This document shows positions 3-7,705 of a stretch of 7,705 nt of DNA, one piece after another (position 1 is the first letter of the stretch; every line of letters begins with the position of its first letter). The notes under the pieces were generated by a model. That model saw only the letters and a program-made list of their open reading frames with translations. It was not told where the DNA came from and did no database searches. Location: the IMG/VR virus record IMGVR_UViG_2529293040_000017; one strand, given 5' to 3'. Source of the DNA: a virus. Taxonomy: Duplodnaviria > Heunggongvirae > Uroviricota > Caudoviricetes. The position numbers were made by a program, and so were the translations under genes.

Positions 3-440
3 CTGGGTGAGGGAACGGTCATCCACATTGTGCCGCGACTGGCCGGGGCCGGAAAGGGTGGACTGCAGATTGTGTTGGGGGCGGCAGCCATCGTGGGCTC
101 TTTCTTCACTGCCGGGGCATCAATGGCGTTATGGGGTTCAGCCCTGGCAGCCGGTGGTTTTTCTGCCACCACGATGCTGTTTTCTCTGGGGGCCAGCATG
201 ATTCTGGGTGGTGTGGCTCAGATGCTGGCCCCGAAGGCTAAAGTACCGGAGTACAAAAGCACGGATAACGGCAGACAGAACACGTATTTTTCGTCACTGG
301 ACAACATGATTGCCCAGGGTAACCCGATGCCGGTGCCTTACGGGGAAATGCTGGTTGGCTCCCGCCGTATATCCCAGGACATCAGTACCCGTGATGAAGG
401 CGGGGGCGGAAAGGTCGTGGTTATCGGGCGGCAGGCATAA
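3..440 (+). CDS. Tail assembly protein I (lambda gpI-like), 5'-partial; only the C-terminal part is in the window
   Basis: Reading frame is open from the window edge to TAA at 438-440. The translation (GKGGLQIVLGAAAIVGSFFTAGASMA...MLAPKAKVPEYKSTDNGRQNTYFSSLDNM...GGGGKVVVIGR) matches the C-terminal region of lambda gpI as I recall it, and it sits immediately upstream of a J homolog as in lambda. Confidence 0.8.
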   Translation: MGEGTVIHIVPRLAGAGKGGLQIVLGAAAIVGSFFTAGASMALWGSALAAGGFSATTMLFSLGASMILGGVAQMLAPKAKVPEYKSTDNGRQNTYFSSLDNMIAQGNPMPVPYGEMLVGSRRISQDISTRDEGGGGKVVVIGRQA

Positions 441-445
441 AAGCG

Positions 446-483
446 AAAAAATCCCGCAGTGCTCACGGACAGGAACTGCGGGA
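446..483 (-). terminator. Putative intrinsic terminator on the minus strand (hairpin plus T-tract)
   Basis: Inverted repeat TCCCGCAGT (452-460) / ACTGCGGGA (475-483). On the minus strand the hairpin is followed by TTTTTT (complement of the A6 run at 446-451). The 14-nt loop is larger than typical. Confidence 0.4.
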
Positions 484-590
484 GCGTTACGAAGATTGAG
501 TGTAAGGAATTATTCTTATGTCACGACAAAAACATTAACTCAGAGAGGGAGGATGTGCCGTTCTTTTCAGGGAGAAAGGATTTATCGTCC

Positions 591-624
591 TGAGGAATAA
601 AGGTAAGGGGCCCGCCCCTTACCT
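591..624 (-). terminator. Putative intrinsic terminator for sodC (GC-rich palindrome)
   Basis: Perfect 10-bp stem AGGTAAGGGG (601-610) / CCCCTTACCT (615-624) with a 4-nt loop, 7 nt beyond the sodC stop. On the minus strand it is followed by TTATTCCTCA. Confidence 0.55.
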
Positions 625-630
625 GACTGA

Positions 631-1158
631 TTATTGAATGATGCCGCAGGCCATTCTCGCACCACCACCGCCCAGGGGCTCCGGATGGTCATGATGGTTA
701 TCACCGCCAGCATGAAGCATGAGAGAACGCCCTTTAATCTCTTTTAATGAGTTCAGTCTCGGGGCCAGGACCGGGTAGTTCGCTTTTCCGTCATGCGTCA
801 CGAACAGCGCAGGGAGGTCGCCCAGGTGTCCATCCGGAGACCAGGGGCCAAGATGTTTGCCGGTGTTTTTCGGGTCAAAGTGACCGCCAGCCGATAATGC
901 TGCGACCGGTTTTCCGTCTTTCAGTGCCGGGGCGCAATTTCCTTTTTCGTGCACATGAAAACCATGAATGCCTTCAGACAGAGAGTGAAGGGCTGGTGTG
1001 AACAGCAGACCGTAGGGGGTCTCCTGAATGGTTATTTTTCCAATGCTGACTTCTTTTCCGTCAGCACTGACAAGGTTCATTGGGACTTCCTGTTCTGCTG
1101 CGTATCCGCATGATGCTGCTGTCAGCATGGCAATGGCAGCAATGATTTTACATTTCAT
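631..1158 (-). CDS. sodC: Periplasmic Cu/Zn superoxide dismutase (SodC family), prophage-encoded cargo gene, 175 aa
   Basis: This is the C-terminal 175 codons of the 631..1665 minus-strand ORF, starting at ATG (complement of 1156-1158) with a GAGGG Shine-Dalgarno 4 nt upstream. It has an N-terminal signal peptide ([22 protein letters not shown]) and the SodC hallmarks [53 protein letters not shown]. The upstream 169 codons of that ORF are only an open antisense frame over the J start. Confidence 0.9.
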
Positions 1159-1291
1159 AAAACCCTCATTAATTCCGTTAACAGACTGAGCTTGCTGGTT
1201 ACAGGGTAACAAACAGCGTTCTGATGATATCGCGCAATAGCTGTGCAATATCCTATCACTGCGATTAATAATACCAATTGAGAGGAACATT
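1159..1291 (-). promoter_or_regulatory. sodC upstream control region (promoter not resolved); also carries the J ribosome-binding site on the plus strand
   Basis: 133-bp non-coding gap between the divergent sodC and J starts. sodC faces away from the tail operon, so it needs its own promoter here. I could not find a convincing sigma70 -35/-10 pair with proper spacing. A small inverted repeat GTTAC-AGG-GTAAC lies at 1198-1210. Confidence 0.3.
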
Positions 1292-4200
1292 ATGGGCAAA
1301 GGTGGCGGCAGGGCGCACACGCCTCGAGAGGCGAAGGATAATCTCAAATCCACGCAGATGATGAGTGTGATTGATGCGATTGGTGAGGGACCGATAGAAG
1401 GCCCGGTGAAGGGGCTGCAGAGTATCCTGGTGAACAAAACCCCGCTGACGGACACGGACGGCAATCCTGTGATACACGGTGTGACCGCGGTCTGGCGCGC
1501 CGGGGAGCAGGAGCAGACACCACCGGAAGGCTTTGAGTCCTCCGGAGCTGAAACCGGACTGGGCGTGGAAGTGACGAAGGCAAAGCCGGTAACGCGCACC
1601 ATTACATCCGCGAACATTGACCGCCTGCGGGTCACCTTCGGGGTGCAGTCACTGTTGGAGACCACCTCAAAGGGCGACCGTAATCCCTCTTCTGTCCGAC
1701 TGCTGATTCAGTTGCAGCGTAACGGTAACTGGGTGACGGAAAAGGATGTCACCATTAACGGCAAGACCACCTCACAGTACCTGGCGTCGGTGATTCTGGA
1801 GAATCTGCCTGAGCGGCCCTTTAACATCCGGATGGTCCGGGAGACAGCGGACAGCACCTCGGACCAGCTGCAGAATAAGACGCTCTGGTCGTCATACACC
1901 GAAATCATCGATGTGAAACAGTGCTACCCGAACACGGCGATTGTGGGGCTGCAGGTGGATGCGGAGCAGTTTGGCGGTCAGCAGATGACGGTGAACTACC
2001 ATATCCGAGGTCGCATCATCCAGGTGCCGTCAAACTATGACCCGGAAAAACGCACGTACAGCGGCATCTGGGACGGCAGCCTGAAACCGGCATACAGCAA
2101 CAACCCGGCCTGGTGCCTGTGGGACATGCTGACTCACCCGCGCTACGGCATGGGAAAACGTCTGGGGGCGGCAGACGTGGACAAATGGGCGCTGTATGCC
2201 ATCGGGCAGTACTGCGACCAGACGGTCCCGGATGGTTTCGGGGGCACAGAGCCGCGGATGACCTTTAATGCGTACCTGTCACAACAGCGTAAGGCATGGG
2301 ATGTGCTCAGTGATTTCTGCTCGGCGATGCGCTGTATGCCGGTATGGAACGGCCAGACGCTGACGTTCGTTCAGGACCGCCCGTCGGATGTGGTGTGGCC
2401 GTACACCAACTGCGATGTGGTGGTGGATGATAACGGCGTGGGGTTTCGCTACAGCTTCAGCGCCCTGAAGGACCGCCACACGGCGGTGGAGGTGAATTAC
2501 ACCGACCCGCAGAACGGCTGGCAGACCTCCACGGAACTGGTGGAAGACCCGGAAGCCATACTGCGCTACGGGCGCAACCTGCTGAAGATGGATGCGTTCG
2601 GTTGCACCAGTCGCGGTCAGGCCCACCGTGCCGGGCTGTGGGTGATAAAGACCGGACTGCTGGAAACGCAGACGGTGGATTTCACGCTCGGGTCACAGGG
2701 GCTGCGTCACACACCCGGTGACATTATTGAAATCTGTGATAACGACTATGCCGGGACCATGACCGGCGGACGTATCCTGTCCATCGATGCCGCCAGCCGC
2801 ACCCTGACACTGGACCGTGAGGTGACCCTGCCGGAGACAGGTGCCGCCACGGTGAACCTGATTAACGGCAGCGGTAAGCCGGTGAGCGTGGCCATCACTG
2901 CACACCCCGCGCCGGACCGGATACAGGTCAGCACCCTGCCTGATGGTGTGGAGACATACGGGGTGTGGGGACTCTCCCTGCCGTCACTGCGTCGTCGCCT
3001 GTTCCGCTGTGTCTCCATCCGGGAAAACACGGACGGCACCTTTGCCATCACGGCGGTGCAGCACGTACCGGAAAAAGAAGCCATTGTGGATAACGGTGCC
3101 AGCTTTGAGCCGCAGTCAGGTTCCCTGAACAGCGTCATCCCACCGGCAGTGCAGCACCTGACGGTGGAGGTGAGCGCAGCTGACGGCCAGTATCTGGCGC
3201 AGGCGAAATGGGACACGCCGCGGGTGGTGAAGGGTGTGCGCTTCAGTCTGCGCCTGACCAGTGGTAAGGGAACGGATGCCAGACTGGTGACCACCGCCAT
3301 CACCGCAGACACGGAGCACCGTTTCAGCGGCCTGCCGCTCGGGGAATACACCCTGACGGTGCGGGCGATAAACAGTTATGGCCAGCAGGGCGAACCGGCC
3401 ACCACTACCTTCCGGATTAACGCGCCAGCAAAACCCGCCACCATTGAACTGACGCCGGGGTATTTTCAGATAACGGCGGTCCCGCGTCTTGCGGTGTATG
3501 ACCCGACGGTACAGTTTGAGTTCTGGTTTTCGGAGGCAAAAATCGCAGACACATCTCAGGTGGAAACCTCTGCCCGTTATCTGGGGACCGGCAGTCAGTG
3601 GAGTGTATCCGGCCCGCACATTAAGCCCGGGAAGGATTTCTGGTTTTACGTGCGCAGCGTCAACCTGGTGGGGAAATCTGCGTTTGTGGAAGTCAGCGGG
3701 CAGCCCAGCAATGATGGTGAAGGGTATCTGGAATTTTTCCGGGAAAAAATAGGAAAACTGCATCTGGCTCAGGGGCTATGGGAGCTGATAGACAACAGCC
3801 AGCTTGCGGATGAGATGGCGGAGATGAAGACCACCATCACCGAAACCCGCAATGAAATCACACAGACGGTCAGTAAAACGCTGGAAGACCAGAGCGCCAC
3901 CATTCAGCAGATACAGCGCGTGCAGAAGGACACAAATGATGACCTGGCTGCGCTGTACATGCTGAAGGTTCAAAAAACGAAAGACGGCATTCCCTATGTG
4001 GCCGGGATTGGTGCAGGGATTGAGGATACTGATGGCCAGCCACTGAGCAACATACTGCTGCTGGCTGACCGTATCGCGATGATAAATCCGGAGAGCGGCA
4101 ACAGCACTCCGTTATTTGTGGCGCAGGGGAATCAGCTGTTCATGAACGACGTGTTCCTGAAGCGTCTGTTTGCGGCGAGTATCACGTCATCCGGCAACCC

Positions 4201-4768
4201 CCCGACGTTTTCCCTGACGCCGGAAGGGAAGCTGACAGCTAGGAACGCGGATATCAGCGGAGCAATTACCGCGAATACCGGCACGCTCAATAATGTCACC
4301 ATTAACGAGAACTGTGTCATCAGAGGGAAACTGTCTGCAAACCAGATTGAAGGCGACCTGGTGAAGACGGTGGGGAAAGCCTTTCCCCGGAATAACAGTT
4401 ATGCCAGCGGGACGGTAACCGTCACAGTTTACGATGACCAGGGCTTCGACCGGCAGATTATCATTCCCCCGGTGCTGTTTCGCGGGACGAAACACCAGAA
4501 TTTCAACAGCCCGAATCAGCAGTCGTACTGGTATTCCACCTGTAAGCTGCAGGTGCTGAAGAACGGGGTTGAGATTTTCCATGAACCGGCAACGGATGTC
4601 AGCCGGGTGTTCTCATCGGTGATAGATATGCCGGCAGGGCGGGGTCATGTCACCCTGACGTTTAATGTGTCGTCGGCCGGTGCGAACAACTGGACGCCGA
4701 CAACGTACATCAGTGATTTACTGGTTGTGGTCATGAAAAAATCCACGGCAGGGATCAGTATCAGCTGA
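1292..4768 (+). CDS. J: Host specificity protein J / central tail fibre (tip attachment protein), lambda gpJ-like, 1158 aa
   Basis: ATG at 1292 with AGAGGA Shine-Dalgarno 5 nt upstream; stop TGA at 4766-4768. The translation aligns along its length with lambda J as recalled ([18 protein letters not shown].., [84 protein letters not shown]-terminal [10 protein letters not shown]). Confidence 0.95.
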
Positions 4769-4787: not shown

Positions 4788-4814
4788 GGCACCTCAGGAG
4801 GTGCCTTTTTTATT
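4788..4814 (+). terminator. Intrinsic terminator downstream of J (tJ-like)
   Basis: Stem GGCACCT (4788-4794) / AGGTGCC (4799-4805), loop CAGG (4795-4798), followed by TTTTTTATT (4806-4814), 20 nt after the J stop. Confidence 0.75.
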
Positions 4815-4836
4815 GACTGAAAACAAAGAGGTAATC

Positions 4837-5460
4837 ATGCGGCATTTATACGCAACGATATTATTGTTTACTACCCTGCTGGCAGGAATTGCCTTTCCTG
4901 CACAGGCTGAAAACGGACACGGTGCATTTTCCGTGGGATATGCTCAGGTTCACCCGGGCGGCGTACCGGCATTGTCCGGTACCGGTGCGCGTGCAGGTGA
5001 TTTAAAAGGGATTAATGTGAAATACCGTTATGAGTTCACGGATCACCTGGGCGGCATTGTCGCGCTGAGTTATGCATCGGTGAAGAAAAGTGACACGATG
5101 AAGACGGGTGAAAATACCTTCCATTATGAAAGCCTGCGCGGTCGTTATGTCAGTCTGATGGCCGGCCCTGTCTGGCAGCTCAGTGAGCGGGTCAGTCTCT
5201 ATGGCATGGCCGGGATGGCGTACACCCGCTGGTCTGACAGTGTTCAGGATTACCGGCGTGATGAAGTGAAACCGGGGTATGTGAAGGAGACCACCACCGC
5301 CAGTGATGGTCATACTGCGCGTCATCTGTCGCCGGCCTGGAATGCCGGGATTCAGTTCAGTCCCGTAGAGACGGTGGTTATTGACCTTGCTTATGAAGGT
5401 TCCGGCAGTGGCGACTGGCGCACTGACGGTTTCATCGTGGGTGTCGGCTATAAATTCTGA
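4837..5460 (+). CDS. lom: Lom/Ail/PagC-family outer-membrane beta-barrel protein (lambda Lom-like), 207 aa
   Basis: ATG at 4837 preceded by AAAGAGG (4823-4830); stop TGA at 5458-5460. Signal peptide MRHLYATILLFTTLLAGIAFPAQA. Near-identical motifs to lambda Lom as recalled: HYESLRGRYVS, AGIQ, AYEGSGSGDWRTDGFIVGVGYKF (C-terminal aromatic residue). The ORF-track start at 4801 is a GTG inside the terminator stem and is not used. Confidence 0.9.
   Translation: MRHLYATILLFTTLLAGIAFPAQAENGHGAFSVGYAQVHPGGVPALSGTGARAGDLKGINVKYRYEFTDHLGGIVALSYASVKKSDTMKTGENTFHYESLRGRYVSLMAGPVWQLSERVSLYGMAGMAYTRWSDSVQDYRRDEVKPGYVKETTTASDGHTARHLSPAWNAGIQFSPVETVVIDLAYEGSGSGDWRTDGFIVGVGYKF

Positions 5461-5482: not shown

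Positions 5483-7705
<2,223 letters not shown>

Follow-up and report, generated by a model that had tools for sequence, protein, structure and literature searches.

A sodC cassette in the slot between tail genes I and J of a lambdoid prophage

The stretch of viral DNA analysed here (the window; 7,705 nucleotides) is the tail end of a lambdoid prophage, and the segment separating its tail genes I and J is very probably a self-contained 'moron' cassette in the I-J slot of the tail operon, encoding the periplasmic Cu/Zn superoxide dismutase SodC-F1. The gene, its product, its prophage site and its likely role are already known from the O157:H7 genome papers and from biochemistry published in 2008, and the first-pass annotation was right to regard the arrangement as known rather than novel, the product being SodC-F1 of Escherichia coli EDL933 (PMC2569942). 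The contribution of this work is to define the boundaries of the cassette, its relationship to the Fels-1 gene in the same slot, its frequency of about 10%, and its exchange as a unit between diverged tail modules; the importance of these results beyond annotation is small.

The sodC gene, its neighbours and its product

The window begins inside the tail assembly gene I homologue, the 3' part of which is an open reading frame on the plus strand (30..440, with the TAA at 438-440) encoding a protein 100% identical to the 'tail assembly protein' of prophage L001, and 70% identical to lambda I. The tail tip and host specificity gene J lies on the same strand (1292..4768, with its ATG at 1292), and is intact, its 1158 aa product matching the NCBIfam lambda_TipJ model over its full length (2312 bits, cut-off 1950), as well as the Pfam J domains. 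The 851 bp spacer between them (441-1291) holds a single real gene, sodC, on the minus strand (631..1158; ATG at 1158, stop codon ending at 631; 175 aa plus stop), which is divergent from J, with the two start codons 133 bp apart, and convergent with I. The antisense placement of sodC between genes ending at 440 and starting at 1292 was therefore correctly described.

Downstream of J is an Ail/Lom family outer-membrane protein gene on the plus strand (4801..5460; Pfam Ail_Lom, 173 bits), a second cargo gene at the position of lambda lom that is 100% identical to its L001 homologue. Just 23 bp past the lom stop codon begins an IS100 element of the IS21 family (5484..7439, plus strand, with inverted ends at approximately 5484 and 7439), carrying istA (5570-6592) and istB (6589-7371), which replaces the lom terminator and tail-fibre genes of the near-identical prophage L001. 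The right end of the element adjoins the interior of an IS3 orfA fragment (7440-7705), and the flanking sequences, GTTAT and ATAAA, constitute no target-site duplication. Hence this junction, the loss of the tail fibres and the lack of a duplication mean the prophage in the window is truncated or rearranged, and the lom-IS100 junction was found in no complete E. coli genome of the collection. The IS100 is context only, being outside the sodC unit.

The sodC product matched Pfam Sod_Cu (PF00080) with an E value of 3.9e-32 (111.9 bits, cut-off 28.9; profile positions 3-133 of 133), and the NCBIfam SodC equivalog NF007628 with 218.4 bits (cut-off 165; positions 2-172 of 172), with bacterial periplasmic SodCs as the top relatives of solved structure (E ~1e-62). 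Judged by these scores, the match to the Cu/Zn superoxide dismutase family is far above chance. In a MAFFT alignment with Fels-1 SodCIII, Gifsy-2 SodCI and human SOD1, the Cu ligands H68, H70 and H149 align with human H46, H48 and H120, the bridging H93 with human H63, and the Zn ligands H102, H111 and D114 with human H71, H80 and D83, while the catalytic R168, and C171, correspond to the identical human residues R143 and C146. Among the bacterial sequences, C77 coincides with a conserved Cys of both SodCI and SodCIII, human C57 being offset from it owing to a prokaryotic insertion. All Cu and Zn ligands are therefore kept, with none of the ligand histidines lost, upholding the original assignment to this enzyme family, and as read from the sequence the open reading frame is intact, with all catalytic residues present.

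Prophage L001 and two Stx2a-converting phages encode exactly the same SodC protein (100% identity), and one EDL933 copy departs from it at a single residue, L112P. D'Orazio et al. 2008 (PMC2569942) described this difference: owing to T/C variation at nucleotide 335, sodC-F1 encodes Leu and sodC-F2 encodes Pro. In E. coli O157:H7 EDL933 both genes are carried by prophages, CP-933R and CP-933V (PMC2569942). Hence, having Leu112, the window encodes SodC-F1, which is the purified form. This enzyme is dimeric, at approximately 30.6 kDa by gel filtration, has high thermal stability, and had an activity of 19380 U/mg compared with 6290 U/mg for chromosomal SodC, making it about three times more active (PMC2569942). 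Its expression is reported to occur in exponential phase and anaerobically, and to be RpoS-independent, with the results for the sodC-F promoter and rpoS fusions given as 'data not shown' (PMC2569942).

These data bear on whether sodC is a decaying or inactive remnant that is passively carried, as might be imagined from the downstream disruption of the prophage in the window by an insertion sequence, and from the natural F2 allele having a Pro beside the Zn ligand H111. However, 542 of 549 records match the cassette at 99% identity or more, and the Leu112 form encoded here is the one purified with an activity of 19380 U/mg (PMC2569942). The pseudogene reading was consequently rejected, on the basis of an intact reading frame, the full set of catalytic residues and the activity of the identical protein, and it retains next to no probability.

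The gene also carries the signals needed for translation and export. The Shine-Dalgarno sequence GAGGG (1163..1167, minus strand) is 4 nt before the ATG, within a 21-bp run that is perfectly conserved in a diverged sodC allele of E. coli cM8a. The signal peptide comprises codons 1-20 (1099..1158, minus strand), and includes an AASC lipobox at codons 14-17 (1108-1119, minus strand); these features were read from the sequence, as were K2 and K4, a hydrophobic core, and G-Y-A|A at residues 20/21. Solved mature SodCs start aligning at residues 15-25 of the product. The lipobox is already known: the SodC-F1 signal peptide is described as dual, with cleavage by SPase I at 20/21 or by SPase II at Cys17 of the lipobox, and export is supported by LipoP and by fractionation, in which the protein was split between soluble and membrane fractions (PMC2569942).

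Boundaries and signals of the I-J slot

The first-pass annotation treated the whole of 441-1291 as inserted DNA, which is accurate for the spacer, but overestimates the cargo. The I-proximal arm of the spacer (441..548) is 98-100% identical between the sodC-less Stx2c phage L003 and sodC-bearing phages, and is also kept, more loosely, in a class of 342-bp spacers. As the first 108 bp past I are therefore common to phages lacking sodC, the cargo proper spans approximately 549-1291. Similarly, the statement that lambda J directly follows I is approximately right, the gap being 60 bp. In a spread sample of E. coli tail modules of the window's family, spacers were either 851 bp with sodC, or approximately 342 bp or 237 bp without an annotated gene, such that comparison of the I-J junction across lambdoid phages, as originally envisaged, sets the 851 bp spacer against sodC-less spacers of 60, 237 and 342 bp.

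The I-proximal arm is common to all the spacer classes, and extends in the cM8a allele and in the short spacers by approximately 57 bp that the window type lacks. A search for sodC remnants in the 237- and 342-bp spacers found none, and each of these contains an unrelated filler with a plus-strand hairpin. Simple deletion of the cassette therefore does not explain the short spacers, and from these comparisons the I-J slot appears to act as an exchange point with alternative fillers, rather than as a simple site of insertion and deletion. In two such sodC-less spacers (L091 741-1082 and L003 3441-3678), a G+C-rich hairpin precedes a plus-strand T-run, on the same strand as I and J, resembling a terminator between these genes in the late operon; neither spacer contains a convincing open reading frame.

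Two hairpins on the minus strand follow sodC. The proximal terminator (601..624, minus strand) starts 7 nt past the sodC stop codon, and consists of a 10-bp G+C-rich stem and a 4-nt loop followed by UUUAUU (dG -17.4 kcal/mol, z -4.09); it is part of the cassette, and is kept in the cM8a allele with compensating changes. The distal intrinsic terminator (443..486, minus strand) abuts the I stop codon, and comprises a hairpin (486..452) with a 9-bp stem, CCCGCAGU/ACUGCGGG, then AUUUUUUCGCUUUU, which provides a U6 run (minus strand z -2.2). It sits in the shared arm, and is present also in sodC-less phages; hence an antisense terminator persists in lambdoid tail modules with no gene in the I-J slot. 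Together with the export signal and the GAGGG at 1167..1163, these two hairpins bear out the description of a gene with its own signal peptide, Shine-Dalgarno sequence and terminators. An Rfam scan of 380-1400 returned sub-threshold matches only, the best being to the Salmonella sRNA STnc400 (591-667, minus strand; 23.2 bits against a gathering threshold of 80, E 0.077), which overlaps the 3' end of sodC and its terminator, and is probably a chance or generic terminator similarity.

Both hairpins (601-624 and 452-486) have a U-run on the minus strand only. The two minus-strand terminators would be expected to stop sodC transcripts before these run antisense into gene I, while late read-through on the plus strand is possible because the hairpins there lack U-tracts. 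In lambda, Q-modified late transcription passes terminators. On induction of this prophage, Q-antiterminated late transcription would likewise be predicted to pass the cassette on the opposite strand and reach J.

The G+C content of the window is 0.55-0.64 in I and J, and 0.555-0.565 across most of the sodC coding sequence, compared with 0.415-0.50 over 901-1300. A scan of 380-1400 for consensus sigma-70 promoters yielded no match. Relaxed scanning identified two minus-strand candidates, each matching at 8/12 positions: a sigma-70 promoter, TTGGTA-16 nt-TAGGAT (1277..1250), which falls below the threshold of the tool, and an extended -10, TGgTATTAT (1276..1268), which is retained as TGaTATGAT in the cM8a allele (TGnTATnAT). 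The 299 bp upstream of the sodC ATG, corresponding to 1159-1457 of the window, drove lacZ, and the protein was made in uninduced cultures (PMC2569942). Within this fragment is a 32-bp block, CTATTGCGCGATATCATCAGAACGCTGTTTGT (1209..1240, minus strand), that is perfectly identical between the two E. coli sodC alleles, and represents the longest perfect run in the slot, the alleles being otherwise 76-79% identical; the number of such runs expected by chance is 0.066 at 78% identity. The block may be a candidate promoter or operator element, and possibly a regulator site. It contains TATCAT and an FNR-like match at 7/10 positions, TTGCGCGATATCAT; matching of regulator sites across the 299-bp fragment gave this FNR match, PhoP at 7/12 and CRP at 6/10, none of which is convincing. 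An FNR site overlapping the -10 was discarded, since it would predict anaerobic repression, the opposite of the published anaerobic expression. The promoter candidates and the 32-bp block are consequently leads, and not findings.

The position of these signals raises the question of which partner the cassette serves. Were it to benefit the phage more than the lysogen, antisense sodC transcription or the divergent promoter might throttle J in the prophage state or, as a variant, late transcription might silence sodC by interference, with the position itself being functional. Such an explanation would accommodate the occurrence of three sodC lineages, 60-79% identical (those of the window, cM8a and Fels-1 sodCIII), in the same slot and orientation, a candidate promoter abutting the ribosome-binding region of J, 15-40 bp from its start codon, and the retention of the arm with its minus-strand terminator even in sodC-less phages. 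However, Gifsy-2 sodCI is found elsewhere, between lom and L, the I-J slot is empty of genes in most relatives, and tail genes are silent in lysogens, as established for lambda, making a phage-serving role improbable. A broader proposal would be that the I-J junction is a dedicated cargo-exchange slot, the position of which is selected through interference between sodC and late transcription, or through control of J, with the 32-bp block being an unrecognised regulator site. This is based on the I-proximal arm and its minus-strand terminator persisting when the slot holds no gene, and on sodC lineages only 60-79% identical being kept there in phages of both E. coli and Salmonella; we regard it as unlikely.

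The favoured explanation remains a host-serving moron cassette. SodC-F1 is reported to be made in the lysogen from its own RpoS-independent promoter, exported, and partly lipid-anchored via the AASC lipobox (PMC2569942), and would then remove periplasmic superoxide in the lysogen, to the benefit of the host.

Distribution, mobility and pathogen association

Of 5426 complete E. coli genomes, 547, or about 10%, carried the 743-bp cassette (549-1291), with up to five copies in one genome, and its identity was at least 99% in all but seven of the 549 records; the entire I-sodC-J stretch was found in 542 complete E. coli genomes. It was also found in two sequenced Stx2a-converting phage genomes. 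In all six of the E. coli or phage contexts inspected (L001, L002, L006, L089, L090 and Fels-1), which include Stx2a phage EH2201, EDL933, the cM8a allele, and a tail module recorded as a 'plasmid', sodC was antisense between I and J. The rare second allele (L089 5035-5562, from E. coli cM8a, Malawi; approximately seven records) is in the same I-J slot, and has 79% nucleotide identity to the common allele in the coding sequence.

This distribution supports the initial classification of sodC as accessory prophage cargo. The alternative, that it is a host core gene beside phage remnants, is vanishingly improbable: no evidence was found in its favour, about 90% of complete E. coli genomes lack the cassette, and the chromosomal sodC of K-12 (b1646) is a distinct gene, with 58.3% identity, located elsewhere and flanked by ydhK and ydhF. 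The same gene was sought in the host core without phage context and was not found, every context that was opened having the order I-sodC-J, and the cassette is carried by both the Stx2a-converting phages. Moreover, neighbours encoding gpI, gpJ or Lom were found at 0 of 80 sodC loci in other species. The core-gene reading was accordingly tested and rejected on the frequency of the cassette, its phage tail contexts and the separate K-12 locus. The closest species-representative relatives among these 80 loci, from Serratia, Pseudomonas and Pragia, are 62-68% identical and chromosomal, without phage neighbours, and hence no donor was identified.

Comparison of the window with Stx2a phage EH2201 indicates how the cassette has spread. 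I differs at 31 of 440 bp, and the first 509 bp of J at 23 positions, with no mismatches in the 851 bp of 441-1291, where the divergence of the flanks predicts approximately 48. Hence the cassette and the shared arm have spread recently between diverged tail modules, and the 100% identity of the cassette between prophages in which I and J differ by 4.5-7% indicates that this spread was by recombination. The likely route is exchange between prophages resident in one host, through homologous recombination or gene conversion, with the conserved I and J flanks being where homologous recombination would move the cassette from one prophage to another. The 3' third of J (3001-4768 of the window) has approximately 72% DNA identity to the J of O157 and Stx2a phages (L002/L006), compared with 95-98% over the 5' 1.7 kb, which is the usual mosaicism of receptor-binding domains.

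The suggestion that the cassette marks a pathogen-associated lineage is plausible for the sample examined. Downstream of its tail fibres, prophage L001 encodes the T3SS effectors nleB2, nleC, nleH and nleF (27286-30443), while past the tail fibres the EDL933 copy has three DUF1076 genes (L006 15673-17673), and L090 an NleB-family gene (12709 onward). At least 16 of 40 evenly sampled cassette records were named O157:H7, O145, O111 or O39, but the hosts of the cassette also came from seawater, poultry, a dog and a giant panda. Owing to the IS100 junction, the window lacks the effector region of the related prophages.

The proposed protection against the phagocyte oxidative burst is established for Salmonella SodCI; for the E. 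coli enzyme, the published evidence is limited to H2O2 sensitivity and accumulation in Caco-2 cells (PMC2569942). Specifically, the deletion of the prophage sodC copies lowered survival of H2O2, with the effects of sodC deletions not being additive, and the abundance of SodC-F2 relative to chromosomal SodC was increased in bacteria recovered from inside Caco-2 cells (PMC2569942).

Comparison with known systems

The closest comparison is with EDL933, with which the window shares the Leu112 form of the protein, a cassette differing by 1 nt in 743 from the EDL933 copy compared, and the order I-sodC-J-lom. By contrast, the flanking I is only 93% identical to that of the window in DNA, and J is 95-98% identical over the 5' 1.7 kb, approximately 72% over the 3' third, and 78.5% identical overall as a protein; past lom, the window has IS100 instead of tail-fibre genes. 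The K-12 SodC belongs to the same enzyme family, with the same ligands and periplasmic location, but is encoded at a core locus. It is a fully soluble monomer, its production depends on RpoS and is confined to aerobic stationary phase, and its activity is about one third of that of SodC-F1 (PMC2569942).

The parallel originally drawn with Gifsy-2 and Fels-1 stands in general, with the E. coli prophage SodC being a 100% match, and SodCIII and SodCI more distant relatives, whereas the correspondence in position applies to Fels-1 alone. The gene for Fels-1 SodCIII (STM0924) also lies antisense between homologues of I and J, sharing both slot and orientation, and the protein is a prokaryotic Cu/Zn SOD with the same ligands. 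It differs in having only 60% amino acid identity, unalignable non-coding flanks, a shorter spacer of 722 bp, and no Cys in its signal peptide, hence no lipobox. Gifsy-2 SodCI (STM1044) is also prophage-borne, and encoded antisense within a lambdoid tail operon, with 58.4% identity and conserved ligands, but its slot is between the lom homologue and L, upstream of K-I-J. Control by PhoPQ is documented for SodCI, but is not known for the E. coli enzyme. The in vivo virulence role of the Salmonella enzyme is established (cited in PMC2569942).

More generally, the sodC cassette resembles the lambdoid 'morons', a concept of Hendrix and colleagues exemplified by lambda lom and bor: it is an additional gene with a terminator of its own, placed where relatives have two neighbouring genes, expressed from the prophage, and with a phenotype that would benefit the host. 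Unlike lom, which has the same direction as the late operon, sodC is oriented against it, and the promoter of sodC is, by sequence, only a candidate.
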